The position numbers were made by a program, and so were the translations under genes. Under the pieces are notes generated by a model. That model was not told the DNA's origin and searched no databases. It saw only the letters and a program-made list of their open reading frames with translations. From the NCBI GenBank assembly GCA_018303185.1, contig JAGVYR010000001.1:8461-72460 (forward strand): a DNA stretch of 64,000 nucleotides, written 5' to 3'. Positions 15,410 through 57,208 of this stretch are shown piece after piece (positions within the stretch are counted from its first letter, which is position 1; each line of letters opens with the position of its first letter). Source of the stretch: Candidatus Woesearchaeota archaeon (GTDB lineage: Archaea > Nanobdellota > Nanobdellia > Woesearchaeales > GW2011-AR4).

Positions 15410-15422
15410 GCCTGCCAATAAC

Positions 15423-24517: not shown

Positions 24518-25567
24518 ATGCAAAATCAAAAGAGCGATTTGTTGGATAACGGGCTGGAAGTAGGGCAGGCCAGCATCAAGGTAATCGGGGTAGGCGGTGG
24601 CGGCAACAACATGGTCAACTGGCTCTATAAGAAAGGGGTCAAGGGAGCTGAGATCATAGCCTGCAACTCTGATAAGCAGCATCTCGAGATTACACAGGCC
24701 GACTCAAAGTTCCTTATAGGAAAGCATGTAACTAGGGGCTTGGGATGCGGAGGCTTCCCGCAGAAAGGAGCCGAGGCAGCGCAGGAAAACATGAATGATA
24801 TCAAAGAGCATATTAGAAACTCGGACATAGTATTCGTATGCGCAGGAATGGGCGGCGGCACCGGAACAGGAGCAGCGCCGATAGTTGCATCTGTTGCAAA
24901 GGATGCAGGCGCAATAGTAATCGGCACTGTAACCATGCCCTTCAGCATAGAAAGGGCTCGCGTACATAAGGCAGAATTCGGCCTCGACCAATTAAGGAAA
25001 TACGCAGACACCGTCATAGTGATTGACAACAACAGGCTTGTGAGCATTGCTGGCAATCTTCCTGTGCAGCAGGCATTCGCTGTGGCAAACGAGCTTATAG
25101 CTACAATGATAAGGGGCATTGTTGAGACAATATCGGTCCCATCTTTAGTCAACCTTGACTTCGCTGATGTAAAAGCCATAATGAAGGGAAGCGGCGTAGC
25201 TGCAATCGGCGTCGGCACATCAGACACAACAAACAAGGTTGAAGAAGCAGTCAAAGGCGCACTCAGCAATCCTTTGCTGGACATAAGCTACAAAGGCGCA
25301 ACCGGAGCTTTAATCCACATAGAAGGCGGCCCTGACATGACTCTGGATGAGGTAAGCAGGGCAGGCGAAATGGTCACAGAAAGCCTTGATGAAGACGCAA
25401 ACATCATCTGGGGAGCAAGAGTTTCGGAAAACATGAAGGGAAAGATTACTGTCATGACAATAATAACAGGAGTGACAAGCCCCTGGATAGTTGGAAAGGA
25501 CACAGAGAAGGCTGCAAAGCTTGAAAAAAAGAAAATGGAAAATGAATTCGGCATCGAATTCTTTTGA
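24518..25567 (+). CDS. ftsZ: cell-division GTPase FtsZ (tubulin superfamily)
   Basis: IKVIGVGGGGNNMV, GGGTGTG tubulin signature, 349 aa, GAGGTGA Shine-Dalgarno. Confidence 0.9.
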   Translation: MQNQKSDLLDNGLEVGQASIKVIGVGGGGNNMVNWLYKKGVKGAEIIACNSDKQHLEITQADSKFLIGKHVTRGLGCGGFPQKGAEAAQENMNDIKEHIRNSDIVFVCAGMGGGTGTGAAPIVASVAKDAGAIVIGTVTMPFSIERARVHKAEFGLDQLRKYADTVIVIDNNRLVSIAGNLPVQQAFAVANELIATMIRGIVETISVPSLVNLDFADVKAIMKGSGVAAIGVGTSDTTNKVEEAVKGALSNPLLDISYKGATGALIHIEGGPDMTLDEVSRAGEMVTESLDEDANIIWGARVSENMKGKITVMTIITGVTSPWIVGKDTEKAAKLEKKKMENEFGIEFF

Positions 25568-30721: not shown

Positions 30722-30800
30722 GGCGTGCGGCGAGGCTGGGGTCGCGCCCTGCGGGCTGCCGAGCAGGTTTTCGCAGAAAACCGTCGCACCGCCATAAAGC
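30722..30800 (+). repeat. GC-rich structured element R4, copy 1
   Basis: gcgtgcggcgagg...ggggtcgcgccctgcggg...aggttttcgcagaaaacc...gtcgcaccgcc. It is homologous to 51181-51262 and 53741-53832. Confidence 0.5.
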
Positions 30801-30815
30801 TTGGCTCAAGCTCAC

Positions 30816-31514: not shown

Positions 31515-31532
31515 TTTATCTGTAGAAGGCCA

Positions 31533-36475: not shown

Positions 36476-36482
36476 CTCTTTT

Positions 36483-39400
36483 TTAGTGCAAATTGCTTAT
36501 GTTGCTTATTTTACTATGCAGCTCCATGCATTTCTTTGACACTTCAGCCTTATGCTCCCTCGGGATAATGCTGTATAGTGATTGTATCTTCTTGTATATT
36601 GCGAATGACGCCTTTTTGTCGTTTGCCATTATGCTGCTTTCCGCTTCATCAGCCAGCTTATGCACATAAAGCATGTTGAGCCTGTGCGCCATGTCAGTCA
36701 CTGCCTGCTTTACTCTTTCTCTTTTCTCTTTCTCAAGCGCCCTGAACTTTTCTGTTATCTGCCTGTATTTCAGGGATGCGTTTTCATAATTCATCGCGGC
36801 AGCATCCGCATTCGCCTCTTCAATTATTTTTTTAAGCTCCTTCAGCTCCTTGCCGCCAAGAAGATGCGCAAATTTCTCGATGCCGCCCATTGAATACACG
36901 AAATAAAACCCTGCCAGCAGCACGATTGCAGCTATCTCGAGTATCAGCCTTATGTCGGCAGCATTTATGAAGCTTGTCGCCGCGCTTTCAAGTATCGAGA
37001 GCCCTATAAAAATCCCTTTGCTCTCAATCTTAAGGCTTTTGTCAAGAAGCATTGACTTTATGCTTTCAGAGTCATCAAGGCTTATTGATTTTTTAATAAG
37101 GTATGAGTATTCTTCAATCTTGTTCAGGTCTATCCGGACTATCGGGTCATATTGCACGACTTCATGGTCAAAAAGCAGCTCTGTCTCATTCAGGTCCTTT
37201 GCGATTTCTTTAGGAATCACCTCGTAGAAGACATAGTCCGATATGTTTGAATTCACCTTGACTATCTTATGGATCAGGGTATAAGTTCTCCTGTCTCCTG
37301 AGATATACTCAAAGTTCACAATCTTTGCCTTTGTTGTGACAGTGATTGCCGATTGCAAATTGAGGTTATGGCTTATAAGCTGCTCTTTTTCTCTCCTGGA
37401 GAACTTAAGGTTTGTCTGGTTTAGCAGCACACTGACCCCTTCCGCAATTTCTGGCCTGCCGGGATAGTTTACAAATTCCGTCGACTCGGCAACCTCAATC
37501 ACTCTTGGAGTTGTTTTTCTTATTTCCTCAACTCTATCCAGTATTTTCTGCGTTTCCTTTTCAAGCTCACTTTCATTCAGCTTTCTCCACTTGAGGCTGT
37601 GCAGGTCTCTATTTGCCCTGTCAAGGCTTGTAATGCTTCTCTCGAGCATCTCCTTGAGCCTGATCGCGTCAGCAGCTTCCTTCTCCTTTCCTGTAAGGCT
37701 TCCTGAATCCTCGATGGCAGACCTTATCTGCTGGACAAGGCTTTCTGTATCCCGGTCGCTCTGGTCAAGGTCGACAGAAAGCTCGTTTATTACCGCTTCT
37801 TCATTTACTACAAGGCTGTAAGTCTGGCTCGCGTTCAGGTTTCCGCTCCTGTCAATGCAGTCTACCTTCCATCTGTAGTCGCCATTGGGCATGTTAGCAA
37901 CCTTAAAATTGTTTGATGAGCCTGTAAGCACAGAGCTGTTCGATGCCTTGACCGAGGAGAATGGGAGGCTGTAGGGTTCATAATAAAGCCTGCATGTCAT
38001 GTAGCCGCCATCGGCTGCGGCATAAGTGAAGGTTACATTTCTCGAGCTGATTATTGTGTCATTCTGCGGGCTTATGAGATAGGCGATGGGGGCTTTTTCA
38101 TCCTTAAGAGTGAGATTGAAGCTCACTTCCTGATTATTGGCATTTATTGATATGTCCTTGGATAGCTTATTGTATCCTCTCTTTGCGATTTCTATATCAT
38201 GGCTGCCCTTATACACTGTAAATGATGCCTGCCCGCTGCTGCTCGTGTTCTTTTCTTCGTCATCCACCGATACTATGGCATTCTGTATGGCTGTTCCGGT
38301 GCCATTCTGCCTGACTGTCACGGTAAAGTTGAACATCTTTCTGACGCTTATAGTTTCTATGTCTGTCTGGTTCCAGAAAGAGTCTTTCACAGTCAAATTT
38401 ACATTATAAGTCCCGTTGAACTGGAACAGCTTTGTGGGATTTGATTCTGTGCTGTCTATCGTTCCGTCATTCTCAAAATCCCATTTGTACGTTACAGTTC
38501 CAGTATTTCCCGACACTGTTGCCGAAAAAGTGACTGCTTTCCCTTCATCTATTGAAGTTCTGTTGGCATTTATTGTAACGCTTAAAGGATTGCTTTGCGG
38601 CGCAAGCACTTCAAACTGCCTTGTTATTGTCTCCGTAACATTAATGTAATGCATGTCCGCTGTTATAGTATAATTTCCGGCATTGCTTGTGTTTTCTATC
38701 TTCCTTATCTCCGATATGGGAAATCCTGAAAACAAAGGCTGGAATAAATGCCTGTACGTGACAGCATTATTTTTCCTTACGGTCATGTTTACAGTGGAAT
38801 TTACTCTGGCTATGACTGTCGCATAAACACTGTCAGTCAGGTTGTATTGAAGCTGGCCTGTTGAGGCATTGAAAGGCACACACGAGCTGCAGCTTCCTCC
38901 GCAGTCTATTCCCGTCTCCTGCCCGTTCTGCCTTGCATCCGAGCAGCTGCCTATCTCTGTAAAGTTGAATTTGTAGAATTCCTGCCTCTCGTTTCCGTTG
39001 AAATCCCTTGCTTTTATAGTAAGGTTGTTTTTTCCTTCCATTACCGGTAATGCAATTTCTTTTTTTCTTCCTGTCCCGGCATCTTCAAATGCTGTAAATC
39101 CGTTATTGTTTGCATTATAGCTTATGTTCCCGTATTCGCTCAGAGTTATTTTTACAGGCAGTGAGAAAGTTATCTCTGACTGCTCGCTGTTGTTGGTTAT
39201 ATTCAGCGATATTGAAGGCGCTGCCGAATCCGCAACAGTAAAAGTATGCTCAAGCCTTCCGCCGCTGTAATTTATCCCGATTGTGTGCTGCCCGTTGGCA
39301 AGGACTCCATGCGGCAACGAGCCGTTCAGTAAAGATAAAAATGATGTATTTTCTCCCAAAGCAATTTTTTCCCCCGCATCCAGCGTATAATTCGCGTCAA

Positions 39401-40013
39401 TCGTCTCATTGGCCGAGAAATTGAGATAAATATTTTCCCCTGATGAAAGATTGCTGCTGTTATCCGGGCTTGTTATCGTTATTATCGGATTTCCCGATGA
39501 CATTATTGAAAAGCCCGAGCCTCCAAAGCTCCCTTGGAATTGTGCGCTCAGGTTCTTCCACTCGGAATAATAAGTATTGGTGTAAGGGTTCTCTCCCAGG
39601 CTGTATTCAACATAGACTGTCTGGGCAAGCACCCTGTTATTTTCAGTTGCCCCATAAGTCCCATATGACAGGTATAAAGGCTCGTTCCAGTCCGGCCTTG
39701 TCGGCACCATGGACATGAAGTTGCAGCACGCCTCGCTTCCGTAGCAGGCAAAAGTCGAGTCTCCTGTATTTTCTGACTGGACATTCCATCTCGTGCAGAG
39801 ATTTGATTCGTTCAGTCCCAGCTCAAACAGCGAATTTTCAACAGTGAAGTCAATTGCCCCGGTATCCGATTCAATCCCGTTATTGTCAAAATCGTATGCG
39901 GGATTGCTTCCGTATTGAAGGTTGATTAAAACGCGCTCTGTAGTCTGCGCCAAAGCGGCTGTGCTTATTATAAGAATAAACAGCAGCAGCATTGTTTTGA
40001 GGAAGGAGCTCAT
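36483..40013 (-). CDS. giant surface (glyco)protein with PKD domain, C-terminal TM anchor and cytoplasmic coiled-coil tail
   Basis: 1176 aa with a signal peptide and dozens of N-x-S/T sequons. The PKD signature is TVTYKWDFENDGTIDSTESNPTKLFQFNGTYNVNLTVKD. The TM helix lies near residue 1010, followed by about 150 aa of cytoplasmic coiled coil. Confidence 0.75.
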   Translation of the reverse strand: MSSFLKTMLLLFILIISTAALAQTTERVLINLQYGSNPAYDFDNNGIESDTGAIDFTVENSLFELGLNESNLCTRWNVQSENTGDSTFACYGSEACCNFMSMVPTRPDWNEPLYLSYGTYGATENNRVLAQTVYVEYSLGENPYTNTYYSEWKNLSAQFQGSFGGSGFSIMSSGNPIITITSPDNSSNLSSGENIYLNFSANETIDANYTLDAGEKIALGENTSFLSLLNGSLPHGVLANGQHTIGINYSGGRLEHTFTVADSAAPSISLNITNNSEQSEITFSLPVKITLSEYGNISYNANNNGFTAFEDAGTGRKKEIALPVMEGKNNLTIKARDFNGNERQEFYKFNFTEIGSCSDARQNGQETGIDCGGSCSSCVPFNASTGQLQYNLTDSVYATVIARVNSTVNMTVRKNNAVTYRHLFQPLFSGFPISEIRKIENTSNAGNYTITADMHYINVTETITRQFEVLAPQSNPLSVTINANRTSIDEGKAVTFSATVSGNTGTVTYKWDFENDGTIDSTESNPTKLFQFNGTYNVNLTVKDSFWNQTDIETISVRKMFNFTVTVRQNGTGTAIQNAIVSVDDEEKNTSSSGQASFTVYKGSHDIEIAKRGYNKLSKDISINANNQEVSFNLTLKDEKAPIAYLISPQNDTIISSRNVTFTYAAADGGYMTCRLYYEPYSLPFSSVKASNSSVLTGSSNNFKVANMPNGDYRWKVDCIDRSGNLNASQTYSLVVNEEAVINELSVDLDQSDRDTESLVQQIRSAIEDSGSLTGKEKEAADAIRLKEMLERSITSLDRANRDLHSLKWRKLNESELEKETQKILDRVEEIRKTTPRVIEVAESTEFVNYPGRPEIAEGVSVLLNQTNLKFSRREKEQLISHNLNLQSAITVTTKAKIVNFEYISGDRRTYTLIHKIVKVNSNISDYVFYEVIPKEIAKDLNETELLFDHEVVQYDPIVRIDLNKIEEYSYLIKKSISLDDSESIKSMLLDKSLKIESKGIFIGLSILESAATSFINAADIRLILEIAAIVLLAGFYFVYSMGGIEKFAHLLGGKELKELKKIIEEANADAAAMNYENASLKYRQITEKFRALEKEKRERVKQAVTDMAHRLNMLYVHKLADEAESSIMANDKKASFAIYKKIQSLYSIIPREHKAEVSKKCMELHSKISNISNLH

Positions 40014-40294
40014 TTCAGCATCCCTCCCTTCATCAGCTGCTCTTTTATCGCTTCCAGCTCTTTGTTGATCTGCTCCCTTACTTTTTCCTCAGAAGTTTTC
40101 CTTGTCTCTTTCTCAATATCCTGCCTTAATTTGTTTAACTGGAATAATTCCGGGCTTTGCGCCTTTGCCCATTCCTTCCTTACAATGCTTCTCAATTGCT
40201 CGCTTAAATCAAGAAAATGCTGCTCCTTTGCAAGCTGCTTCAATTCATCCAGAAGGGATTTCGGCATCCTGATGCTGACTAAAACATCAGTCAT
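40010..40294 (-). CDS. ribbon-helix-helix (RHH/CopG-Arc) family DNA-binding protein
   Basis: VSIRMPKSLLDELKQLAKEQ is an RHH beta-strand plus helix. The probable start is MTDV, an internal Met of the 40315 ORF. It overlaps the giant gene by 4 nt. Confidence 0.5.
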   Translation of the reverse strand: MTDVLVSIRMPKSLLDELKQLAKEQHFLDLSEQLRSIVRKEWAKAQSPELFQLNKLRQDIEKETRKTSEEKVREQINKELEAIKEQLMKGGMLK

Positions 40295-40436
40295 CCTTTC
40301 CCTGCCTCCTGACATAGTTTCTTGAGAATTCCCTGATTGCTTCGCTTCTTGACTTGTAGATGCCTTTCTTCACCAAAGAATCCAGCCACTCAACTATTTC
40401 CTTCGGCAGCCGCACATTGAAAATCTCTACATCCAT
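40287..40436 (-). CDS. small RHH/CopG-like DNA-binding protein, 49 aa
   Basis: I translated it by hand: MDVEIFNVRLPKEIVEWLDSLVKKGIYKSRSEAIREFSRNYVRRQGKDD. It is not in the ORF track. Its stop overlaps the next gene start (gATGActga). Confidence 0.45.
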   Translation of the reverse strand: MDVEIFNVRLPKEIVEWLDSLVKKGIYKSRSEAIREFSRNYVRRQGKDD

Positions 40437-44163: not shown

Positions 44164-45948
44164 ATGAACAAGAAAGCAGACTATTGTTTTGAGGTTTCAT
44201 GGGAAGTGTGCAATAAAGTCGGAGGAATCTTCACTGTTGTAAAGAGCAAGGCAGCAAGGATGGTTGAGTATTACCATGAAAACTATTACCTTATAGGCCC
44301 TTACTTCCATGACAAGGCTCTGGGCCAGTTCATTGAAGGCACTCCCGAGCATTCTTTCAGGGAAGCGGCTGACAGCCTGAAATCCCAGGGCATAACCTGC
44401 CATTTTGGGAAATGGCGCGGCGATGGAGAGCCGAACGTAATCCTGATAGACTTTGAAAGCTTCAGGGGCAAAATCAACGACATAAAAAAGGAATTATGGG
44501 AATATTTCAAGGTTGACTCCATAAGGGCAGGCAATGACTATGACGAGCCGGTTGCGTTCGCATATGCTTCTGGAAAAGTGATTGAATCATTGTCAGGCGC
44601 GCTGCACAATAAAAAAGTTGTCGCGCATTTCCATGAATGGCTCTCAGGCGCCGGATTATTGTACTTGAAATCAAGAAGCGCGAAAGTCGCAACAGTATTC
44701 ACAACGCACGCAACCATCTTAGGCAGGACACTGGCCTCATCAGGCATTGACATCTACAATGTATGGGACAAGATAAACCCTGAGGAAGAAGCAAAGAAAC
44801 ATTCCATAGAGTCAAAATTCACGATAGAAAAGCAGTCTGCACTGAATGCTGATGCATTCACGACTGTGTCGGAAATCACGGCTATGGAGGCAGAGCACAT
44901 GCTGGGGAGAAAGGCTGACGTCTTGGTACTAAACGGCCTTGACATAGAAAAATTCCCGAGCTTTGAAGACGCGTCAATACACCACCGCATCATGCGCGAC
45001 AAGATGCGCGAATTCCTTGAATATTATTTCTTCCCTTACTACAGCTTTGACCTGAACCAGTCATTGAACTTTTTCACGTGCGCCCGCTATGAATTCCATG
45101 ACAAGGGAATAAACATAATGATAAAGGCCCTTGGAAACCTGAACAGGAGGCTGATGCAGGAGAAAAGCAGCAAGACAATCGTGGCATTCTTCTTCGTGCC
45201 TGCTGATGTAAGGAGCATGAAACCCGAAATAATAGAGAACAGGACAAACTACCAGGACATAAAGGGGTCTTTCGACGATTCCCTGGAAGACATCAAGAGG
45301 AACATCATGCGCATTCTTCTTTCAGGGAAGAAGATATCGGAAGAGACGGTATTTTCAAAAGAATTCGTCTCTGAAGTTAAAGGGAAATTGTCCAGATTCA
45401 AAAGAAAAGGCCTCCCGCCTGTATGCACCCATGACCTCCATGCCCCTAAAGATGATATTCTCCACGGGCTCTGGCAGGAAGGGCTTAACAATGGTGAGAA
45501 TAGCAGGGTCAAGGTAATATTCTACCCGATTTACCTTACAGGCGCCGATAACCTTCTCAACCTGAGCTATTATGAGGCAATAGAAGCCGGCCATCTGGGA
45601 ATCTTCCCCTCATATTACGAGCCGTGGGGCTATACTCCTCTTGAAGCGGGTTCTTTGGGAGTTGCTTCTGTAACCACTGACCTCGCGGGCTTCGGAAGGT
45701 TCTTCTGCGCTGAATGCCGCCAAGGGGATGAAGCGGGAATCTTCATAGTGAAGCGGCTTAATAAGACAGAAGATGACGCGGTAAGGCAGCTTGAGGATGT
45801 CATGTACAGGTACAGCCAGTTTTCCCAGAATGAGAGGATAGACAACAAGCTCCAGGCAAGGAAAATAGCGGCAACAGCTGACTGGAAGCTCTTCATAAAG
45901 AATTACATTGAGGCGCACAACAAGGCAATTGAGAAGGCGTTTGGCTAG
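44164..45948 (+). CDS. glycogen synthase, GT3 (eukaryote/animal-fungal type) family
   Basis: The N-terminus FEVSWEVCNKVGGIFTV matches the GT3 hallmark (FEVAWEVANKVGGIYTV in eukaryotic GSY). It is 594 aa. A C-terminal YEPWGYTPLE block is present. Confidence 0.75.
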   Translation: MNKKADYCFEVSWEVCNKVGGIFTVVKSKAARMVEYYHENYYLIGPYFHDKALGQFIEGTPEHSFREAADSLKSQGITCHFGKWRGDGEPNVILIDFESFRGKINDIKKELWEYFKVDSIRAGNDYDEPVAFAYASGKVIESLSGALHNKKVVAHFHEWLSGAGLLYLKSRSAKVATVFTTHATILGRTLASSGIDIYNVWDKINPEEEAKKHSIESKFTIEKQSALNADAFTTVSEITAMEAEHMLGRKADVLVLNGLDIEKFPSFEDASIHHRIMRDKMREFLEYYFFPYYSFDLNQSLNFFTCARYEFHDKGINIMIKALGNLNRRLMQEKSSKTIVAFFFVPADVRSMKPEIIENRTNYQDIKGSFDDSLEDIKRNIMRILLSGKKISEETVFSKEFVSEVKGKLSRFKRKGLPPVCTHDLHAPKDDILHGLWQEGLNNGENSRVKVIFYPIYLTGADNLLNLSYYEAIEAGHLGIFPSYYEPWGYTPLEAGSLGVASVTTDLAGFGRFFCAECRQGDEAGIFIVKRLNKTEDDAVRQLEDVMYRYSQFSQNERIDNKLQARKIAATADWKLFIKNYIEAHNKAIEKAFG

Positions 45949-46158: not shown

Positions 46159-47709
46159 TCAGTTAGCGTCAATCATCGACATATTCTTATCCAGAATTAC
46201 TGCGCTGCTTATCCTGTTCTTCCCGAATGATTTCGACCTGTACATGGTCTTGTCAGCCGCATCAACAAGATGCATGTAATCAACATTGGAATCCATGCAC
46301 GTGACTATCCCGATGCTCATAGTGATGTTTCCCTTGGGCTGCTTCTGCCTTCCGAAAAACTCTCCTGTTTCAGCATCTTTCCTTATTCGCTCCATCGCGG
46401 CCTTTGCATCATTTACAGAAGTATTGGGCATTATCACGATAAACTCCTCTCCCCCATATCTTCCCGCAACATCAGCATCCCTGACTTTATTCTTAAGTAT
46501 GGCGCTTATCTCCTGCAATAATGAGTCTCCCCTGACATGGCCATGAGCATCATTGTAATGCTTGAAGTCGTCTATGTCCATCAGTGCTACTGAAACGGGA
46601 TTCTGCTTTGAGGCATTTTTCATGAACTTGTCCCTTAGTATGGCCATGAAATGCCTCCTGTTGTAAAGCCCTGTCAAATTATCGACAACAGACTCCTCTT
46701 TTGCATGCTCAAATTCCTGTGCATTGTAGATCGCCATGGCAAGCTGGTCTGCAACGACAGAAAGAAATGAGGAATGGTCGCTGTTCAGCTTTATGTATCC
46801 TGAATAGTAAAGGCACAGCGCTCCAAGAAGATTTCCACGCATCCTGATAGGCAGGGAAATCGCAGACTTTATGTCTCCGGCCTTTATCCCTTTGAACCTG
46901 AAATCCTTTGAGAAGTCATTCACTTCAACATTGCTTTTCAGGTTTATTATCTCCGAGGCTATGGCACTTTCAAGCGGCTCAAGCCCGTTCATCGGATTAA
47001 AAGAATATTTTTTCTTTACAGCTCCATTCTCTATTATCATGACCGAGCAGTTTTTTGCCTTTCCCTCTTCAACCATGTAATCCACAATATGCCTTATTAT
47101 CCTGTCAAGCTCCAATGAGGAATTTGTCATTTTTGTCAGGTTGTATATGGCTGAAAGCTCTGCAATTTTTCTCTTGTCCTTGCCGCTCTCATTCAGCATG
47201 GCAGGGACAAATGATGAAAGGGCACGCAGCACAGAGGCTATTGCTTTTCTGTCCTCTTCCTTTGCAGGATTTGCCTTTGACAGGGCATCTTTTATTTCAT
47301 CCTCTTCAATATTGGAATTCTTGGTTAAAGATGAAAAATCAGAATTTTCTGCACCTGCTTCAATCACATAAGGGCAGCCGATTGCTCCTGCAACTCTTCC
47401 AGCATCTGCAAGCGCAGCCCAAACGCTGCAGAATCCAAGCTCGTGCCTTTGCAATTGCACTTTGCCTGGCTCATTTAAAACAGCCCTCAGCGCGTCTTTC
47501 CTGAACTCTGCAAGGGCTTTTTTCCCATAATCGCAGCTGCCTATAAGCTGGATTAGAAATGGTATTTTTCCTGAAGACGCTACTTCATTTCCTTCTAAAT
47601 CAACGATGCAGACATGCCTCTTTAAAGCCTCATTGGCCTTGTCCGCGAGCATCTTCCAGCCTTCAATATTGTCCCTGAACAGCGCCTCTTCCCCTGCATA
47701 TTCTGCCAT
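46159..47709 (-). CDS. GAF-domain diguanylate cyclase (GGDEF)
   Basis: The C-terminal domain has DNLTGLYNRRHF, DIDDFKHYND and RYGGEEF, a complete active GGDEF signature. The N-terminal roughly 330 aa is GAF-like. Confidence 0.85.
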   Translation of the reverse strand: MAEYAGEEALFRDNIEGWKMLADKANEALKRHVCIVDLEGNEVASSGKIPFLIQLIGSCDYGKKALAEFRKDALRAVLNEPGKVQLQRHELGFCSVWAALADAGRVAGAIGCPYVIEAGAENSDFSSLTKNSNIEEDEIKDALSKANPAKEEDRKAIASVLRALSSFVPAMLNESGKDKRKIAELSAIYNLTKMTNSSLELDRIIRHIVDYMVEEGKAKNCSVMIIENGAVKKKYSFNPMNGLEPLESAIASEIINLKSNVEVNDFSKDFRFKGIKAGDIKSAISLPIRMRGNLLGALCLYYSGYIKLNSDHSSFLSVVADQLAMAIYNAQEFEHAKEESVVDNLTGLYNRRHFMAILRDKFMKNASKQNPVSVALMDIDDFKHYNDAHGHVRGDSLLQEISAILKNKVRDADVAGRYGGEEFIVIMPNTSVNDAKAAMERIRKDAETGEFFGRQKQPKGNITMSIGIVTCMDSNVDYMHLVDAADKTMYRSKSFGKNRISSAVILDKNMSMIDAN

Positions 47710-47802
47710 GATATTTGCATTGAAGCACTGTTTATTAAAGGTTTTTATTGGATTGCGTCCATGTCGGTAAGTTTTTAAATTGATGGAGCAATTATTGCTG
47801 AA

Positions 47803-48290: not shown

Positions 48291-49127
48291 TTAGCTGAGT
48301 TCAACATAAAAGTAATAGGCTGTAGAGCTTGAAAAGCCGATGCCCGCATTCTCCGGAACAATCATCTGGAAGTCATACAGGTTTGAGTTGAATCCCTCGA
48401 TGTTTGCCTCAATCGGAGTCACATACACGACATTCCCGTTAGTGGTGTTTGTACCGTCATACATTATTATCTGGGTAAAGTTGGCATCATCGCTGTCTGA
48501 AAATGACTGCTCATTGTCATTCTGCCATGTCTGGAGCGTGAAGCACTGATTTTTTCCTACGACAATAGAGCCTATTGTGACTGATGAATGATTTGTCCTG
48601 TCAAAAGTTGCAGTTATGTTGTCATCCTGGTTTACATGCCCTAAGGCTGCATTCTCCCTTTCCTCTATCGTCCTGTTTGAAAGAGATGCCCTCAAAGCCC
48701 CTTCTGCAGCCCACGTGCAGTTTATCTGCGCCCATGTGACTGTTCCTGATGCCCTGGTAGAGTAAACTTCGCCTGCAATGCTCGTAAGGCTCCACTGGTA
48801 GAAAGTGTTGGTATTTGCGTCATCCAAGGCGAATGTGCCTGTCACGTTTCCGACATAAGCCTTCCATCTTGTGTTCTGCTGCCTTATGTCCATGGTCATT
48901 ATGAATATGTATCCGCCCGGGCTGCTTCCGTTGACTGTTGAGTTGACCTTGGTAGCTACCGTTGCATTTGGTGTGAGGTTTGCGGTAATATCAACAACTG
49001 GGCCGACAGGAAGTGAGTTTACGAAATGAGAAATGATGGCAAGCATTGCTACTATCGCCAGCAGGAATGCCAGCGTGTTAATTCCTCTTGCAGCTGATTT
49101 CAGCATCTGTGTGCGCATTTCAATCAC
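48291..49127 (-). CDS. secreted sequon-rich protein, FYVEL-terminus paralog family (member 1)
   Basis: Signal peptide, RWKAYVGNVTGTF and the C-terminus YYFYVELS. The start is uncertain and may be an internal Met, because of the 4-nt overlap with the upstream gene. Confidence 0.6.
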   Translation of the reverse strand: MIEMRTQMLKSAARGINTLAFLLAIVAMLAIISHFVNSLPVGPVVDITANLTPNATVATKVNSTVNGSSPGGYIFIMTMDIRQQNTRWKAYVGNVTGTFALDDANTNTFYQWSLTSIAGEVYSTRASGTVTWAQINCTWAAEGALRASLSNRTIEERENAALGHVNQDDNITATFDRTNHSSVTIGSIVVGKNQCFTLQTWQNDNEQSFSDSDDANFTQIIMYDGTNTTNGNVVYVTPIEANIEGFNSNLYDFQMIVPENAGIGFSSSTAYYFYVELS

Positions 49128-50230
49128 TTCAAAATCTCCAATTGCCTCAAGACGCTCTCCTTGAATTTGTACAGATCCTCTTTCCTTATGCGGCCTCCTG
49201 CGCTGTTCCTGTGGCCGCCGCCATTGGCACTGTCAAGGGTCTTAAGGGACCTCTCAAGAAGGTCATTAACCGCTACCTTGCTGTCCCTTCTCCTGACAGA
49301 AAGCTGTATGAAATCGCGCTTCATGTCCTGCGCTATTATGATTGTCCTGTTTGGGTATAAGCTGCTGATGGCTGAGCTTATAGCAGACTTTATCGCATAT
49401 CTTGGCTTTATGTAGTCGAAAATAAGCTCCTGCTTTGGATAGAACTCTGCAAGCTTCCTGACATTCCTTTTCCAGTAGCTTATCTCCTGCTGGATTGCCT
49501 TCCTGTATTTTGAAAGCCTTGAATTCACGACTTCCCTGCTGCTTTTCGCGCTGCAGAGTATGTCATAGCATTCACCTGCTTTCCTGAAGTCATATGCTTC
49601 TGTGAAAAAAAGCGTTTCTGTGGCTTTGCCTATTATCGTGCTGAATGCATCTTTCTTCGCCGGTATTTTATTTCGGGCAAATGTTTTTGACAGAAAATCC
49701 TTCCATGCATCCGCAGCATTGTCGCCTATGATGCCTATTGCAGCAATCCAATCTGATTCAGTTAAGTCAAAAAGCCTGCTTCCTAGGTCGAATGCGAGCT
49801 TCGCAGTGCAGTACTTTGAAGCCTCAACTTCTGAAGAAATCATCTGCGGCTTTATGTGCACAGTCTTCTTTGAATTAAGATTCCTGTAGAGCTTGTGATG
49901 GTCAAGTATCAGCATCTCTGCAAATTTTTCTGTATCCTGCACGTAGTCTGGATACTGGTCAAGGCTCAAATCTGCGATTATCAGCTTGCTTATCTTCTTT
50001 TTTTTCAGCCTGCTGAATGTCTCCTTCTTTATAGAAAGCTCGTCAGGGCCCTGGCTAAGCCTTAGGTCTATTCTTTTCCCGCGTGCTTTCTCAACAATCC
50101 TGTTGAGTATTGCCGCTGATGAAACGCCGTCAGGGTCTGTATGGTGCAGTATTGCAATCCTGTCTTCCTTTTTCAGCCCTCTGATGAAAGAGTCCAGCCT
50201 TTCGGCCAGCTCCCTGTTTTTTATTTCCAT
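49124..50230 (-). CDS. DHH/DHHA1 phosphoesterase (RecJ/NrnA-like)
   Basis: ILHHTDPDGVSSAAIL (DHH motif) and GGGHRNSAGG (DHHA1). The probable start is MEIKNREL, an internal Met of the longer ORF. Confidence 0.75.
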   Translation of the reverse strand: MEIKNRELAERLDSFIRGLKKEDRIAILHHTDPDGVSSAAILNRIVEKARGKRIDLRLSQGPDELSIKKETFSRLKKKKISKLIIADLSLDQYPDYVQDTEKFAEMLILDHHKLYRNLNSKKTVHIKPQMISSEVEASKYCTAKLAFDLGSRLFDLTESDWIAAIGIIGDNAADAWKDFLSKTFARNKIPAKKDAFSTIIGKATETLFFTEAYDFRKAGECYDILCSAKSSREVVNSRLSKYRKAIQQEISYWKRNVRKLAEFYPKQELIFDYIKPRYAIKSAISSAISSLYPNRTIIIAQDMKRDFIQLSVRRRDSKVAVNDLLERSLKTLDSANGGGHRNSAGGRIRKEDLYKFKESVLRQLEILK

Positions 50231-50234: not shown

Positions 50235-51032
50235 TTACTCCAGCTCCACGTAGAAATAGTACGGGGTAGCTGCGCCGTCATGGCCCTCGTGGCCGTTTTC
50301 AAGCACAAGCATCTGGAAGTCTGCTGTGTCAGCAGCCCCGGGCTTGTAGCTGTTTGCGTTCTGCCTTAGCAATGCTGTGAAGATGAGGCTGGAATTGTCG
50401 CTCAGCAGGAGCTCATTCCAGTTTGCGTCTGAAGCCTCATTTGTATATGAGTGGGCCAGTGAGCAGCCGTCTGCATTATTGATTGTGTTTGTTCCGACCT
50501 GAAATCCTTCAGTATCATTGTAAAAGCTTGTGAAGGTCTCATTCAGCCCGTCAGGGTCTGTGATGTTTATTCCGAAATTCATTTCAATTTGGGAGCCGTT
50601 TATGGAAGACACAATTCCTCCGGGCCTTATCGGCGTGCTTCCGTTTTGGGAAACATTTATGCAAAAGATTCTGGTCCATGTTACTGAGGAGCCATTGGAC
50701 GCATAGATTTCTCCTGAAGGATCCGGAAGGTTCCAGTCATATAGCGTAAAGTTGTCTGCATCATCCAAAGTTATTATGCCTGTTATGTTTCCAAGATAGC
50801 CTTGCCATGCCATCGTTACCCTTGTACCGTCAATTACAAGCTCAGTCACGTTGCCGGCTTCTGCCTGGACAGATATAGGATTTGTATTTGCAGGATTCCT
50901 TCCTGTGTTGGAAATGTTGATTACATTGGGCCCCTGAGGAGCAGCTAATGCCATTGATGCCAGCAAAGCAAGAACGCTTATCAGTATCAACGCCGCTGCA
51001 AGATTCCTCAAAGAGTCTTTGGTATGTTCCAT
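50235..51032 (-). CDS. secreted sequon-rich protein, FYVEL-terminus paralog family (member 2)
   Basis: Signal peptide ...ALA-AP, AWQGYLGNITGII and the C-terminus YYFYVELE. Confidence 0.6.
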   Translation of the reverse strand: MEHTKDSLRNLAAALILISVLALLASMALAAPQGPNVINISNTGRNPANTNPISVQAEAGNVTELVIDGTRVTMAWQGYLGNITGIITLDDADNFTLYDWNLPDPSGEIYASNGSSVTWTRIFCINVSQNGSTPIRPGGIVSSINGSQIEMNFGINITDPDGLNETFTSFYNDTEGFQVGTNTINNADGCSLAHSYTNEASDANWNELLLSDNSSLIFTALLRQNANSYKPGAADTADFQMLVLENGHEGHDGAATPYYFYVELE

Positions 51033-51297: not shown

Positions 51298-52245
51298 ATG
51301 CAAACAAGAAAACTCGTGAAGGCAGGAGCAGCATCCCATACAGTCGCTCTTCCAAAGGATTGGCTGAAGAAAAACAATCTTGAGAAAGGAAATATAGTAT
51401 ATATAAGGGAGCTGGCAAGCAACGAGCTCCTTGTTTCTTCGCAGGAAGAGAGGAAGCAAAAAGAGGAGAAAGAGATAACAATAAGCCTTGAGGATAAAAA
51501 GCTCGACACGCTGCACAGGGAGCTTGCCTCTGCATACATTAACAACCATACGACTATCAATATTATAGGGAAAGAGCTCTACAGGAATGTAGTTGAGATA
51601 AGAAACATCCTCAATAATTTTGTCGCGCTTGAGATAACAGAGCAGACTTCAACAAAGATTGTTGCAAAAGACATGCTCAGCCTGAAGGAAGTCTCGATTG
51701 ACAAGACAATAAGGCGTGTTGACAACATAATAAGGTCTGTGCTGAAAGACGTGATGGAAAAAAGCGCTGACATGCAGGACAGCATCAATATGCGCGATTC
51801 CGATGTGAACAGGCTTTACTTCCTCCTCTTCAAGATTGCCAAGGGCGCTCTGATGGATCCTTCCATCTCGAAAGAAGTCGGAATTTCTTCACAGGTGGAT
51901 ATACTGTCCTATTGGTACCTCATACTAAACCTTGAAGCCATTGCAGACCATTCGAAGGATATATACAGTTCATACATCAGCCTTGGGAAGGATAAATCTT
52001 CAGAAGGCATAAATGCGGTCCTAAAGCTGATAGAAGAGTCATATCTTGAAGTCATGAAATCCTATTACGGGAATGACAAGATGGCAGCGGACAGGGTAGC
52101 ATCAAAGAGGATAGATATCTTCAACAGGTGCGAAGAGCTGTCAGAGAAGCAGGCAAGCATGCACGTCATCCGGATTGCGGAAAACCTGAAAGACATTGAG
52201 AACTCAATATGCAACATATCAAGGGTTGTGATGGATAAGGAGTAG
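51298..52245 (+). CDS. AbrB-PhoU fusion regulator (archaeal PhoU-like)
   Basis: The N-terminus TVALPKDWLKKNNLEKGNIVYI is an AbrB/SpoVT swapped hairpin. Two PhoU-like helical repeats follow. Confidence 0.75.
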   Translation: MQTRKLVKAGAASHTVALPKDWLKKNNLEKGNIVYIRELASNELLVSSQEERKQKEEKEITISLEDKKLDTLHRELASAYINNHTTINIIGKELYRNVVEIRNILNNFVALEITEQTSTKIVAKDMLSLKEVSIDKTIRRVDNIIRSVLKDVMEKSADMQDSINMRDSDVNRLYFLLFKIAKGALMDPSISKEVGISSQVDILSYWYLILNLEAIADHSKDIYSSYISLGKDKSSEGINAVLKLIEESYLEVMKSYYGNDKMAADRVASKRIDIFNRCEELSEKQASMHVIRIAENLKDIENSICNISRVVMDKE

Positions 52246-52667: not shown

Positions 52668-53732
52668 ATGCAGCAAAAAATAAAATCTCTCATTGAAAGC
52701 AGCAAGCTAGTCTTCAGGCAGTGCCAGCTAGAAACCGGCGCAATAGTAGCTGCAAACTCGGACTTGAATATCTATCCGAAGGACGTGCAGAACTACCGCT
52801 ATGTATGGCCAAGAGATGTTTCTTTCATTTTAGCAGCTGCAGATTTATTGAAAATAAAGGGAATGCACGAGCCTTTTTACAATTGGCTCATGGAACGCGC
52901 TGAAGATTTCTCAGAATCCGGGCTTCTTTTCCAGAATTACTATCCAAACGGGCCGAAGCGCTGGATGGGCTTCCAGCCTGACCAGAATGGCAGCGTGCTG
53001 TGGAGTATTCACAGTCATTGCAGAGATAATTTGGAAGATGCAAAAAAGCATGAGCCTTTGATAAGAAAACTTGCCGACGGCATTTTAAGCGTATGGAACG
53101 GCAGGCACTTCACCATAATCTCGCAGGACTTGTGGGAAGAAAACTATGCCTATCCGAAATTTGAGCAGAACCACACTTACGCGCTGGCAGCATGCTCCCA
53201 CGGCCTAAGGCTTGCAGATGAAATACTGAAAGAAGAAAAATACAGGAAAGCCTCGGAAGAGATGAAAAAAGCAATTGAAGGCTCATTTGACAGGTATTTT
53301 TTAAGGATGAATGGAAAATTGAAAGACAGGACAATAGACACTTCAATGCTTGGTCTTGCATATCCATTTCCAATATTTGACGCAGGAGACACAAGATTCA
53401 CTTCAACTCTTGACCTTATTGAAAAAAACAACACCGATTCCAACAGGGCATTCAGGTATCCCAATGATTTGTACGACGGCTTCAAGTACAGCGGCATTGA
53501 CGGAAGAAGGGGCTCGGGATTCTGGCCGCTCTTAAACTTCTGGCTTTCAATATGCTTTTCACTGAGGAATGACAGGAAAAAAGCATTAAACTACTATCTT
53601 GCTGCAGTTGATGAGGCAGAAGGCTGTTTCCCCGAGCAGATATTCACAAACGAAATCCAAAAATCCCCAAAGCCATTGGCATGGAGCCATGCAATGTTCA
53701 TATTAGCATCAGAGAAATTAGGGTTTATATAA
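52668..53732 (+). CDS. glycoside hydrolase family 15-like (glucoamylase/glucodextranase catalytic domain)
   Basis: YRYVWPRDVSF is the GH15 signature. Length is consistent with an (alpha/alpha)6 barrel. Confidence 0.7.
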   Translation: MQQKIKSLIESSKLVFRQCQLETGAIVAANSDLNIYPKDVQNYRYVWPRDVSFILAAADLLKIKGMHEPFYNWLMERAEDFSESGLLFQNYYPNGPKRWMGFQPDQNGSVLWSIHSHCRDNLEDAKKHEPLIRKLADGILSVWNGRHFTIISQDLWEENYAYPKFEQNHTYALAACSHGLRLADEILKEEKYRKASEEMKKAIEGSFDRYFLRMNGKLKDRTIDTSMLGLAYPFPIFDAGDTRFTSTLDLIEKNNTDSNRAFRYPNDLYDGFKYSGIDGRRGSGFWPLLNFWLSICFSLRNDRKKALNYYLAAVDEAEGCFPEQIFTNEIQKSPKPLAWSHAMFILASEKLGFI

Positions 53733-53862: not shown

Positions 53863-55719
53863 ATGGTAAAGGCAATCCACCAGTTAAGCGGCGAAAGGAT
53901 AGAGAAAGACGTCGAAAAGGCAGATTTTATTCTCACAAGCGGCAATGGAAGCTACCTTTACCTTGGAGATTATCCTGAAAGCCGCTATCAGGGCTTTTTC
54001 ATATATGAGAACTCGGAGATGCTCAAGGTTCTTGAGCTGATATCCGTAAAGGGCGCAGCCCCGATAGACACTGTGAAAAACCTCTTCTATTCTGTCCAGA
54101 GGAAAAGAGGCATGCTGATAGAAACCTTCTTCCTTCCAAGAGGCAAAAGCTCCATGATGTACAGCCTCAACGAAAAGAGAGAGATAGAGATTTTCCTCGA
54201 TTTCAAAAAATCCTATGACAACAGGGTATGGGGCCTCTCCTACAGCACCTATGAGCAGGATGGCTGCATCATAATAGAATTCACAAAAGCGACAGACAGC
54301 AGGGAGGATGCCTCTTCAGGGCAGGAGGAATACAAGGCCTATCTTGCTATAAAGTCAGACACCGGAAAATTCTCATTAGCGGGAAATTGGATTAAGCATG
54401 ACTATAATCTGGATAAAACAAGAGGGTCAATACCGAATTCAAGGTTTGTATGCCATGCACTTAATATGGAAGGAAGCAAATTTTTTTTCTCAGCCTCGTT
54501 CAGCAAAGAAAAGGCAATAGGGGAATGCATCAGCATCTTTCAGAACAATGAATCAATATTAAAGGGAGATGAGCAGTCATTAGGGAGGATAATAGCTTCA
54601 AAAGATATAAATAGAATAAAAGACAGGGAAAAAAGGTACGCTTACATCTCATCGCTGCTCTCCCTAAGCTCATTGGTTGTAAAAGAAGAAAAGAGCGCAG
54701 GAATTTTTGCCGGGCTGCCGTGGTTTTTCCAGTTCTGGGCAAGGGATGCCGCAATATCGTGCCGCGGCTTGAAAAGCATAGACCTAAAATTGTCAAAAAA
54801 AATCCTTTTTGACATGCTTGGCACCATGAATAATGAGGGGCGCGTGCTTAACATATACAGCCTTTCGGATAAGGATGATTCAAATCAGGCAGCCGGCATA
54901 GCAAGCACCGCAGACGCGACAGGATGGATTTTCCTCAGGCTGTACTGGCTCTTCAGGGAAGGGAACCTCAATATTATAGAAAGGGCAAAGGCAAAAAAGC
55001 TGCTGCTTGATGCTATAAGGCTTTCCGAAGGCAGGATAAATGAGGAAGGGTTTGAAGCCAACAGGGAAAAAGAGACATGGATGGATACTTCAGATCCCGC
55101 AGGCAAAGACAGGAGGGAAGGCATAAGGATAGAGATTCAGGCTTTAAGGCTGATGATATACCGCTTCGCTTATGAATTGACAGGCATGCAGAAATTCCTT
55201 AAGTGGGAGGAGCTCATGAAAGAGAGGGTTTTGTCCGCATTCTATAAGGACGGGATGCTTGCAGACGGAGTTGGGGATTTTACAGTAAGGCCGAACATTT
55301 TCATAGCATATTACGCCTATCCGTGGCTGCTTGATGAAAGCCAGTGGAAGCTTGTTTTTGATTTGGCAATAAAAAAGCTGTGGCTTGACTGGGGCGGCTT
55401 TGCCACAATAGAGAAAGGCCATCCTCTTTTTCAGTGGAATTACACAGGGGAAAGCAATGCAAGCTACCACAGGGGAGACTCATGGTTTTGGGTAAATTGC
55501 CTTGCGGCTTTGTGCATGCTTAGGCTTGACAGCAAGAAATACTACAGGAATATACTTAAGGTAATGGAAGCGGGCACGCAGGAAATTCTCTGGATGGGCG
55601 CAATATCGCACCATTCCGAGGTAAGCTCTGCATCCTCGTTAAAGAGCGAGGGATGCATGATGCAGGCATGGAGCAGCGCCATGTTCCTGGAGCTTTTGCA
55701 GGAATTTTTTTCAGTCTAG
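53863..55719 (+). CDS. glycogen debranching enzyme (amylo-alpha-1,6-glucosidase, GH133/GDE_C)
   Basis: GLPWFFQFWARDAAIS and ETWMDT motifs, 618 aa. Confidence 0.8.
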   Translation: MVKAIHQLSGERIEKDVEKADFILTSGNGSYLYLGDYPESRYQGFFIYENSEMLKVLELISVKGAAPIDTVKNLFYSVQRKRGMLIETFFLPRGKSSMMYSLNEKREIEIFLDFKKSYDNRVWGLSYSTYEQDGCIIIEFTKATDSREDASSGQEEYKAYLAIKSDTGKFSLAGNWIKHDYNLDKTRGSIPNSRFVCHALNMEGSKFFFSASFSKEKAIGECISIFQNNESILKGDEQSLGRIIASKDINRIKDREKRYAYISSLLSLSSLVVKEEKSAGIFAGLPWFFQFWARDAAISCRGLKSIDLKLSKKILFDMLGTMNNEGRVLNIYSLSDKDDSNQAAGIASTADATGWIFLRLYWLFREGNLNIIERAKAKKLLLDAIRLSEGRINEEGFEANREKETWMDTSDPAGKDRREGIRIEIQALRLMIYRFAYELTGMQKFLKWEELMKERVLSAFYKDGMLADGVGDFTVRPNIFIAYYAYPWLLDESQWKLVFDLAIKKLWLDWGGFATIEKGHPLFQWNYTGESNASYHRGDSWFWVNCLAALCMLRLDSKKYYRNILKVMEAGTQEILWMGAISHHSEVSSASSLKSEGCMMQAWSSAMFLELLQEFFSV

Positions 55720-56094: not shown

Positions 56095-56109
56095 CCTTCT
56101 TTAAATGCC

Positions 56110-56445
56110 CTACCCAGTTACCGGAACTTTCTTGCCGTTGAACTCTGTAAGCTGCCCTTTCCTGTTGAATCTCATCGTGATATCGTTGCTCTTCTTCTCA
56201 CCGTCCTTCTCTGCAGAAACGTGCATGAAAACGATCCAGTCGCTTCCTTCCTTGACGCTCTCCATGCTTTCGACCTTAAAAGCGCCAAGATTCTCGGTTG
56301 AATTGCCGTCTCTTGAAAAAAACTGGACATTCTCCTGCACAACCTCTATCGCCATTGACTCAGCTTCTTCCTTTGAGACAGAAGCGCACCCCGCAATGAA
56401 AAGCAGGATAAGTGCAATTCCGGGAATTAGTTTATTTGGAGTCAT
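56110..56445 (-). CDS. hypothetical lipoprotein (PepSY-like?)
   Basis: Lipobox FIAGCAS, about 90 aa mature. Confidence 0.45.
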   Translation of the reverse strand: MTPNKLIPGIALILLFIAGCASVSKEEAESMAIEVVQENVQFFSRDGNSTENLGAFKVESMESVKEGSDWIVFMHVSAEKDGEKKSNDITMRFNRKGQLTEFNGKKVPVTG

Positions 56446-56719
56446 CTTCCTTTTTCATGAGCCTTCCCAAAACCGGCTCAAGCTTCGCCAAAAGCTTCTT
56501 TTTCGCAAGAGCTATTTTTGCTTTTCTTTCCCTGCTCTTCTTCTCCTTAAGCAGTATTTTCTGCATACGCTCATTGTAGCGCTTCATGAGCTTTTCCATT
56601 TCTGCATGGAATTTATTCTCTAACTCTTTCGGCTTTTTGCTGTTGCCCAAATCGTCTGAATATTTGTCCGCAATCTTCTGCTTCTCGTCATCATACCATA
56701 TCTCAAGGTCATCCGCGTC
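56432..56719 (-). CDS. hypothetical Lys-rich coiled-coil protein
   Basis: The probable start is the internal MDADDLE Met, immediately after the stop of a 52-aa upstream ORF. Confidence 0.35.
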   Translation of the reverse strand, partial: DADDLEIWYDDEKQKIADKYSDDLGNSKKPKELENKFHAEMEKLMKRYNERMQKILLKEKKSRERKAKIALAKKKLLAKLEPVLGRLMKKEDDSK

Positions 56720-56723
56720 CATA

Positions 56724-56882
56724 TCAGTCCTTGCCTTCTTTGGCAAGCCTCTTTACCTCGGCTTCAACCTCCTCTCCGGTAAGGATGCCTTCTTTCTCCA
56801 GAAGGCTTGTCATGGCCGCAAGCTTTTTTTCTATCATCCTTATATCGCCCATGTTCCTGAGTATTTGCTCATCTGCATCCAT
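56724..56882 (-). CDS. small hypothetical protein, about 52 aa
   Basis: I translated it by hand: MDADEQILRNMGDIRMIEKKLAAMTSLLEKEGILTGEEVEAEVKRLAKEGKD. It is not in the ORF track. Confidence 0.25.
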   Translation of the reverse strand: MDADEQILRNMGDIRMIEKKLAAMTSLLEKEGILTGEEVEAEVKRLAKEGKD

Positions 56883-56887
56883 CTAAA

Positions 56888-57208
56888 TCACCTGCAAAAG
56901 CATGTGCACTCATTGCACCCTATCTCAGCCTCTTCGAAATCAATTTTGCTGTAGCCCATATCCTCTGTAGAGCACTGCGACCTGCACCTTGACCTGCATT
57001 CATCCTGTGTCTCGATTGTGTGCGTAACCACATTTATGAAGCGCCCGCACTTGTCCTCAATCTCAAATTTCTTTTGCTCCTTTAACGGCAGAAGCAGGAA
57101 CAGTATAGCTATAACTGCAAGAGCCACTATTGCAAGAAACTTTTTATCCATTCTGCTGATAAAACCCTTAAGCATTCTTCCCATCCTTTTCAAATGCCAG
57201 ATATTCAT
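56888..57208 (-). CDS. small membrane-anchored Cys-rich protein
   Basis: A TM helix, then CGRF...CRSRCRSQC...CNECTCFC. Confidence 0.4.
   Translation of the reverse strand: MNIWHLKRMGRMLKGFISRMDKKFLAIVALAVIAILFLLLPLKEQKKFEIEDKCGRFINVVTHTIETQDECRSRCRSQCSTEDMGYSKIDFEEAEIGCNECTCFCR

Follow-up and report, generated by a model that had tools for sequence, protein, structure and literature searches.

Does an intact diguanylate cyclase gene found on an archaeal contig belong to the archaeon, or is it a bacterial gene that reached the contig by recent transfer or by an error of assembly and binning? The gene that raises this question lies at 46159..47709 on the minus strand of a 64,000-nucleotide stretch of contig JAGVYR010000001.1 from Candidatus Woesearchaeota archaeon (GenBank assembly GCA_018303185.1); we refer to this whole stretch as the window. 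According to a 2023 review (PMC10249747), the signal molecule cyclic di-GMP (c-di-GMP) is undescribed in archaea, and diguanylate cyclases are almost confined to bacteria. In the work of Galperin et al. 2018 (PMC5847659) and Galperin & Chou (bioRxiv 10.1101/2021.11.05.467447), RCIX2274 of Methanocella arvoryzae is the only archaeal case, and the archaeal GGDEF and HD-GYP open reading frames (ORFs) that come from metagenome-assembled genomes (MAGs) are treated as possible contamination. For Römling 2022, too, the GGDEF proteins found on archaeal contigs “need to be confirmed” (PMC10086821). Based on the protein, its relatives and their chromosomal surroundings, we propose that the gene is probably a native one of a Woesearchaeota/Nanoarchaeota-type DPANN archaeon, with a cytoplasmic sensor diguanylate cyclase as its product.

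An ATG-to-stop ORF spans exactly 46159..47709 and specifies a protein of 516 residues. An identical protein (P0001) is deposited as ‘sensor domain-containing diguanylate cyclase [Candidatus Woesearchaeota archaeon]’, and the assignment draws further on Pfam and NCBIfam domains, an AlphaFold2 (AF2) model and Foldseek comparisons. A sequence-only reading of this DNA had described a complete GAF-GGDEF diguanylate cyclase; the ORF and both domains are borne out by Pfam, but that description overlooked an N-terminal sensor, a PocR domain at residues 15-167 (47209..47667, minus strand; PF10114, E 3.2e-8, 33.9 bits against a cut-off of 23.9). The GAF domain follows at residues 199-327 (46729..47115, minus strand; Pfam GAF/GAF_2, E 1e-9 to 4e-10), and the GGDEF catalytic domain occupies residues 341-499 (46213..46689, minus strand). 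The latter covers positions 2-161 of the 161 in profile PF00990 (E 1.5e-43, 148.8 bits against a cut-off of 23.8) and also matches NCBIfam TIGR00254 (E 6e-49, 165.9 bits against a cut-off of 37.4). A C-terminal tail of the form ...V[IV]VDKNLxxID, specific to the family described below, completes the protein.

The catalytic domain appears fully equipped. Residues were mapped by PleD offsets taken from alignments with PleD and WspR, together with a 15-member family alignment (A1), and the roles given here are those known for PleD and WspR from structural work. The domain aligns with WspR without gaps across the active-site region, and PleD is also matched. D378 and D380, the equivalents of PleD D327 and D329 at the Mg site, are invariant in 15/15 aligned members, as are the guanine contacts N386 (PleD N335) and D395 (PleD D344). 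R417 (PleD R366) is the conserved Arg before the motif, and K493 (PleD K442) corresponds to a phosphate contact. The active-site motif itself, GGEEF at residues 419-423 (46441..46455, minus strand), directly follows R417-Y418, reads the same in PleD (where it includes E370/E371) and is invariant in all 15 aligned sequences; every mapped active-site residue is either invariant or at least 90% conserved in this alignment. Thus the earlier claim that the domain carries every catalytic signature holds: the three motifs on which it was based, VVDNLTGLYNRRHF, MDIDDFKHYND and GRYGGEEF, are all in the ORF, and the mapped PleD-equivalent residues are intact. Five residues before GGEEF lies an RxxD motif (R410-D-A-D413; 46471..46482, minus strand), which by equivalence with PleD is the I-site for allosteric inhibition by product and which is at least 90% conserved in the alignment. 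Such an I-site is a feature of most active diguanylate cyclases and is dispensable for catalysis.

These residues also bear on what the enzyme would make. Hypr variants, which produce cGAMP, have Ser at the position of PleD D344. Because D395 is Asp in every aligned member, c-di-GMP rather than cGAMP is the predicted product. One could still suppose that the protein has another role, as the source of a different dinucleotide such as cGAMP, as a regulator that binds GTP or c-di-GMP, or as part of antiviral signalling related to Cas10 or to CBASS. Two family members give faint or weak matches to the Cas10-Cmr2 palm, the canonical downstream components of c-di-GMP signalling were not found in the window or the related loci, and c-di-GMP is unreported in any archaeon examined (PMC10249747). 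The guanine-specificity position, however, holds neither Ser nor Thr in any of the 15 sequences, PADLOC finds no defence family matching the cyclase or its neighbours, and the genes kept around the cyclase are of housekeeping type and do not form defence islands. Faint cross-matches between the Cas10 palm and GGDEF are to be expected, as the two folds are homologous. We therefore regard such another role as improbable, and synthesis of c-di-GMP as a well-supported prediction from the residues of the catalytic domain.

Structure prediction is consistent with this assignment. The AF2 model, built on the family alignment, has a mean predicted local distance difference test score (pLDDT) of 81.7 and is confident for the individual domains, with values mostly between 81 and 93 across the GGDEF domain. 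Two long predicted helices, at residues 151-197 and 310-339, flank the GAF domain and join the three domains. The best full-length Foldseek matches are PadC (E 2e-21) and Dcsbis (E 6.5e-17), and the GGDEF domain superposes on that of SadC with a template-modelling (TM) score of 0.89 and a root-mean-square deviation of 2.0 Å, and on those of WspR and DosC with TM scores of 0.83-0.84. Judged by its sequence features, the protein is a canonical sensor diguanylate cyclase, and as an enzyme it would be an ordinary one; both its activity and c-di-GMP as its product are read from these features.

If the enzyme is ordinary, its setting is not, and the first matter to decide is whether the DNA around it is archaeal. 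The gene for FtsZ (24518..25567, plus strand) serves as a phylogenetic marker on the same contig. Its best 120 relatives are 74-82% identical to it, and the named ones are labelled Woesearchaeota, Nanoarchaeota or ‘archaeon’, with one ‘Bacteroidota’ outlier; its best match in the Protein Data Bank (PDB) is FtsZ of M. jannaschii, at 308 bits against 277 for that of B. subtilis. The outlier (P0173), deposited as ‘Bacteroidota bacterium’ and 75% identical to the window FtsZ, probably comes from a DPANN contig that was binned by mistake with a bacterial MAG, contamination in the opposite direction to the one usually feared.

Promoter architecture points the same way. TATA-like hexamers upstream of the window genes number 19 in the bin from -30 to -25 against 1-5 in neighbouring bins, and 16/59 genes have such a hexamer at -40 to -22 against 2.8±1.8 for random positions. 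A Shine-Dalgarno-like site accompanies the hexamer in only 1 of these 16 genes. The archaeal pattern is one of leaderless mRNAs transcribed from TATA promoters, with Shine-Dalgarno sites on internal genes of operons, and the leaderless TATA promoters that had been noticed in the sequence are in this way confirmed statistically. The cyclase has a promoter of this type: its upstream region reads aaaaaCCTTTAATAAacagtgcttcaatgcaaatatcATG, in which an A-rich stretch resembling a B recognition element (BRE) and a TATA box, TTTAATAA, at -30 to -23 from the ATG, which together span 47732..47749 (minus strand), occur without a Shine-Dalgarno sequence.

The gene content of the window was the other ground on which an archaeal source had first been suspected. 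The three KaiC-like ATPases are there and are of archaeal type, as profile matches to single-domain proteins of 261, 232 and 228 residues in tandem at 29887-32219, and their best NCBIfam matches include KaiC_arch_3; a 115-residue ORF precedes them, and no circadian or archaellum partners lie nearby. A Hel308/Ski2-like helicase is also present by profile match. The Sec11-type signal peptidase is weakly supported, as its match to TIGR02228 reaches 42.7 bits and falls below the cut-off of 51.85. Our taxonomic call is based on FtsZ, promoter architecture, gene content and MAG labels. Given the FtsZ relatives, the TATA/leaderless pattern, an archaeal RecJ-like protein encoded beside the cyclase and the NCBI label, we conclude that the contig is archaeal and that the sequence-only reading had no need to doubt its own call of the domain of life.

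An archaeal contig could still have been joined to bacterial DNA, either by mis-binning or as a chimeric assembly. This explanation gains something from the general caution over MAG-derived archaeal GGDEF proteins cited above and from the nearest GGDEF relatives outside the family, which are bacterial. The cyclase gene, however, sits in mid-window between genes whose closest relatives are archaeal (FtsZ and the RecJ-like protein), has the archaeal promoter just described, and is typical of the window in composition (GC z=-0.03, GC3 z=-0.16, codon-usage rank 11/25). At least four samples independently yielded assemblies with this gene order, which argues that the contig is not chimeric. Orthologs occur, moreover, in archaeal neighbourhoods at nine other loci: one of these, L085, is a contig of 1.30 Mb (GCA_028279745.1) that carries NucS and OapC, others carry MCM or an intron-bearing tRNA, and the related loci as a set include MCM, OapB/OapC, TruD, GatB and NucS. 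We consider the bacterial-DNA explanation effectively refuted.

The relatives of the cyclase form a family of their own. A database search returned 14 further full-length PocR-GAF-GGDEF proteins, 28-43% identical to the window protein; beyond these, the matches are bacterial and extend over the GAF-GGDEF part only, and among the best 120 hits PocR is confined to family members. This is the outcome of the check on nearest relatives that had been recommended for the gene: the PocR-GAF-GGDEF family first, then bacterial GAF-GGDEF proteins. An exhaustive profile search with the PocR+GAF module, in which giant multi-GAF proteins dominate the top 150, added at least 15 more full-length representatives; RYGGEEF (residues 417-423 in the window protein) is present in 15/15 of the further complete representatives, and RxxD in 14/15. 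A word-indexed search with the PocR+GAF alignment gave only 2 family members and weak bacterial GAF matches. In all, the family has about 30 members with mutual identities of 29-80%, and the retention of catalytic residues over this range argues for long purifying selection. Wherever a member carries an organism label, it reads Woesearchaeota or Nanoarchaeota. In a neighbour-joining (NJ) tree of GAF+GGDEF over 320 columns, 29 family members group together to the exclusion of 36 bacterial GAF-GGDEF proteins, and this clade has a bootstrap of 71/100. Over the same region identity to the bacterial relatives averages 29% and reaches 38% at most.

The PocR domain varies within this family. A four-Cys pattern (C...CxxC...C) is found in P0005, P0008, P0013 and P0015, at columns of about 50-100 of the family alignment (residues of about 50-95 of the window protein), and again in giant PocR-multi-GAF proteins of 2000-2900 residues (P0332, P0340, P0385, P0394). 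Several family members thus keep the motif, whereas the window protein and its closest relatives have lost it. Where present, the cysteines suggest a metal or redox cofactor.

The chromosomal setting of the family is conserved as well. Ten genomic contexts, in divergent Woesearchaeota-type genomes, fall into two synteny groups. In group 1 (the window, L087, L090 and L093), a divergently oriented gene for an AbrB-PhoU-type regulator is followed by one for a surface protein of 252-265 residues, a DHH-DHHA1 gene, inserts and the cyclase, and then by a convergent gene for glycogen synthase or debranching enzyme, an RHH gene, an ORF of about 95 residues and a gene for a giant surface protein. In group 2 (L085, L089, L091, L092, L094 and L095), the order is MCM, a GTPase, OapB, OapC, the divergent AbrB-PhoU gene, the cyclase, a YGR210-type GTPase and PHP, and, further along, ADK and TruD. 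By tblastn, identities of the neighbours to those of the window are 54-80% for L090 and 40-60% for L087, and then 37-46% for AbrB-PhoU of group 2; identities of the cyclase, taken in the same order of loci, are 43%, 35% and 32-35%. Because both series fall in the same order, the cyclase appears to have diverged together with its neighbours.

This pattern bears on the possibility of a recent and isolated horizontal acquisition, an orphan cyclase standing outside archaeal physiology. Such an event would fit the overwhelmingly bacterial distribution of c-di-GMP machinery (PMC10249747), and it would fit the window, in which there is a single GGDEF ORF and neither a phosphodiesterase nor a receptor was found nearby. 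It fits poorly with a gene of native composition, with some 30 members that all keep the catalytic residues, and with conserved synteny in which cyclase divergence tracks neighbour divergence. It fits no better with a PocR-GAF-GGDEF architecture that is not seen among the bacterial matches in the best 120 hits, or with the additional GGDEF paralogs, intact and degenerate, of the relatives. We judge an orphan of this kind very unlikely. Rather, native composition, synteny over ten loci, divergence in step with the neighbours and a monophyletic family restricted to one lineage lead us to conclude that the gene family is an old one, passed down vertically in this archaeal lineage, and neither contamination nor the product of a recent transfer. 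The NJ sister group of the family is bacterial and includes a Nitrospiraceae protein, which makes an ancient bacterial source for the GAF-GGDEF part plausible. The horizontal acquisition by an archaeon that had been suggested from the sequence therefore survives only in this remote sense; composition, synteny, co-divergence and monophyly speak against a recent event.

Several observations weigh on the other side of this native, vertically inherited and functional cyclase. The trees are simple NJ trees, and in the one built from the GGDEF domain alone the same clade has a bootstrap of only 27/100. The position of PleD R446 is occupied by Lys in the window protein, a substitution that is probably a common variant. 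The 64 kb window contains no rRNA, tRNA or ribosomal-protein genes and no Rfam matches. No EAL, HD-GYP or PilZ domain was found in the window, nor among the Pfam matches listed for related loci totalling about 190 kb, and Rfam finds no c-di-GMP riboswitch in the window or in six related loci, where its only matches are tRNAs.

The genes that accompany the cyclase deserve closer description. An ortholog of the AbrB-PhoU-type regulator (51298..52245, plus strand; 37-62% identical by tblastn to its counterparts in L087, L089, L090, L091 and L092) lies 0.5-4 kb from the cyclase and is divergently oriented in 9/10 loci. Its name comes from its orthologs, which match AbrB-like (MazE_antitoxin) and PhoU profiles; the window protein itself has no Pfam match at E<=1e-3, so that the name first given to it stands by orthology and not by its own profile matches. 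The DHH-DHHA1 protein (49124..50230, minus strand), identified by Pfam, appears to belong to the archaeal RecJ family, with NCBIfam RecJ_archaeal below its cut-off, and retains all DHH and GGGH motifs as invariant columns. Its profile finds the archaeal RecJ/GAN nucleases in the PDB, with P. furiosus RecJ as the best match (3e-13) and MjaRecJ2 also matched. Group 1 retains this gene upstream of the cyclase; in L093 the two share a strand and are 73 bp apart. We considered this protein as a c-di-GMP/pGpG phosphodiesterase and found no specific support for the idea, since its best profile matches are the archaeal RecJ/GAN proteins and TmPDE appears only at E 0.17.

Next to the DHH gene in group 1 is a conserved gene for a secreted or membrane-anchored protein rich in N-glycosylation sequons, which in the window has 265 residues (50235..51032, minus strand; alignment A4 and tblastn) and a paralog of 278 residues at 48291-49127. 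Proteins of this multi-copy family have no Pfam match and contain many N-x-S/T sequons, a conserved core QAEAGNVT...WQGY[YL]GN[IV]TG and a C-terminal motif YYF[YF]VEL; judged by eye from N-terminal sequence only, the ORFs at 60053-61042, 61354-62094, 62184-62933 and 63385-63723 probably belong to it as well.

Convergent with the cyclase in the window is a gene for a GT3-type glycogen synthase (44164..45948, plus strand; PF05693, E 1e-153), whose orthologs are 56-62% identical and stay linked to the cyclase in group 1 (L087, L090 and L093). This eukaryote-like synthase forms a set around the cyclase with a GH15 glucoamylase-like protein (52668-53732) and an amylo-alpha-1,6-glucosidase (GDE_C; 53863-55719), to which L090 adds a GalT-like gene. 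The linkage may reflect function, or it may be mere conservation of gene order; either is compatible with what we see.

Further GGDEF genes are present in relatives of the window. In L085 a GAF-like protein with a degenerate AGDEF motif and no RxxD is encoded directly upstream of the cyclase. In L089 there are four GGDEF genes within 21 kb, of which one is a minimal protein of 183 residues with intact RYGGDEF and RxxD and another has a GYGEEF variant. The sequence-only reading had held that many other c-di-GMP genes of vertical origin in the genome would refute its interpretation; such genes do exist in part, in these relatives, and in our view the extra paralogs strengthen rather than weaken the interest of the finding. 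A more speculative proposal, which we put forward tentatively and hold to be less probable than its opposite, is that Woesearchaeota-type DPANN archaea run a working c-di-GMP network of several cyclases, with degraders and receptors outside the EAL, HD-GYP and PilZ families. Candidates for its components are the AbrB-PhoU regulator, the RecJ-like DHH-DHHA1 protein and the degenerate GGDEF paralogs. Because surface glycoprotein and glycogen genes are conserved around the cyclase, possible outputs would be surface glycoproteins, host attachment or glycogen storage.

For the cyclase itself, we propose a mechanism by analogy with PadC, Dcsbis, WspR and PleD. A leaderless mRNA would be transcribed from the gene's own BRE/TATA promoter, which is of archaeal type. 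In the protein, the PocR and GAF modules would sense an intracellular cue and undergo changes that depend on ligand or state. This signal would travel through the two long linker helices, which probably mediate dimerisation, and regulation would accordingly be dimer-based, as it is in the analogues. Two C-terminal GGDEF domains would then be brought together, each contributing one GTP, and c-di-GMP would be formed. Binding of product at the RxxD I-site could limit output. The family appears to have been inherited vertically in its two chromosomal neighbourhoods, usually beside the AbrB-PhoU regulator.

Two features of the group 2 loci are worth recording in their own right. A tRNA-Thr(TGT) gene lies a few kb from the cyclase; it carries an insert at position 37/38 of 17 nt in L092 (11280-11369) and of 21 nt in L089 (14444-14537), and has none in L085 (14111-14183) or L091 (16593-16665). 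The inserts fold into a helix with small bulges that is compatible with a bulge-helix-bulge, if not a textbook example of one. To our knowledge, short introns at tRNA position 37/38 are found in archaea and eukaryotes and not in bacteria, and the distribution here has the look of an intron gained or lost between closely related DPANN genomes. In its bacterial mode, ARAGORN missed the L089 copy and called that of L092 tRNA-Tyr. The second feature is a gene-free, AT-rich gap of 500-1150 bp between AbrB-PhoU and the cyclase, near MCM, OapB and OapC (L091 9513-9792, L094 9417-10001, L092 6473-7064, L095 9487-10001). In L091 it holds palindromic repeat arrays (ACATAGA...CTATGT) with units of 26-56 nt in at least three copies. 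OapB and OapC are origin-associated proteins, and the gap could be a replication origin or a regulatory region.

Elsewhere in the window, a cluster of an RHH gene, the ORF of about 95 residues and the giant PKD-domain surface protein is conserved at 32632-40436, with counterparts at 12822-19723 of L090 and 20425-21563 of L087. The surface protein has 1176 residues in the window and 1382 in L090. In the window the cluster continues with a protein of four CBS domains and a HerA/VirB4-like ATPase of 772 residues that begins with a hydrophobic segment near its N terminus; the CBS gene is missing from L090, whose HerA-like protein shows 69% identity to that of the window. The cluster may be a module for surface-protein export or adhesion. 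A copper or heavy-metal island extends over 5400-19200 and includes a CopA-type P-type ATPase (16980-19154), a small HMA protein (6327-6530) and an HMA-DsbD_2-cupredoxin fusion (6543-8030), together with DoxX, an ArsR-type regulator (19583-19975) and several small ORFs of membrane or secreted type. GC content is much lower at the start of the window, at 0.32-0.37 over the first 4 kb against about 0.44. At 26400-27350 and 56100-56960 the only long ORFs are of low complexity, rich in Ser, Leu and Phe and free of family matches, and these stretches may be non-coding or mis-framed.

Comparison with known systems shows where the family stands. Dcsbis/PA2771 (PDB 4zmu) and the phytochrome-linked cyclase PadC (PDB 5llw) have a like arrangement of GAF, linker helix and GGDEF, the same catalytic set and the RxxD motif; relative to bacterial GAF-GGDEF cyclases, the window protein adds an N-terminal PocR, the family-specific C-terminal tail, and an archaeal genome and promoter. 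PleD and WspR (PDB 1w25, 3bre, 3i5b) have an equivalent Mg site, guanine contacts, GGEEF and I-site, but there the input is a phosphorylated REC domain rather than PocR plus GAF, and Lys replaces PleD R446 in the window protein. Compared by its description, Methanocella arvoryzae RCIX2274 (CAJ37382; REC-PAS-PocR-GGDEF-HD-GYP) shares with the window protein an archaeal host and the pairing of PocR with GGDEF. Whereas that protein is a single ORF of one methanogen with REC/PAS input and a fused HD-GYP domain, the present family has about 30 members in DPANN archaea, no phosphodiesterase domain and conserved synteny.

Our literature search found no description of a DPANN GGDEF family; one groundwater study reports diguanylate cyclases only as a number pooled over ultra-small bacteria and archaea, and the proteins themselves already stand in GenBank, auto-annotated as diguanylate cyclases. 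With an archaeal promoter, native composition, synteny over ten loci and a lineage-restricted monophyletic family whose catalytic residues all appear to be under purifying selection, the locus and its relatives provide, at the level of genomes, the confirmation that Römling called for. The interest of the finding lies in phyletic occurrence and evolution and not in the enzyme itself. Through this family, the use of c-di-GMP by archaea becomes a question that can be addressed by experiment, and a small-genome archaeal lineage, in which one relative’s contig measures 1.30 Mb, becomes a place to seek non-canonical enzymes of c-di-GMP turnover and non-canonical effectors.

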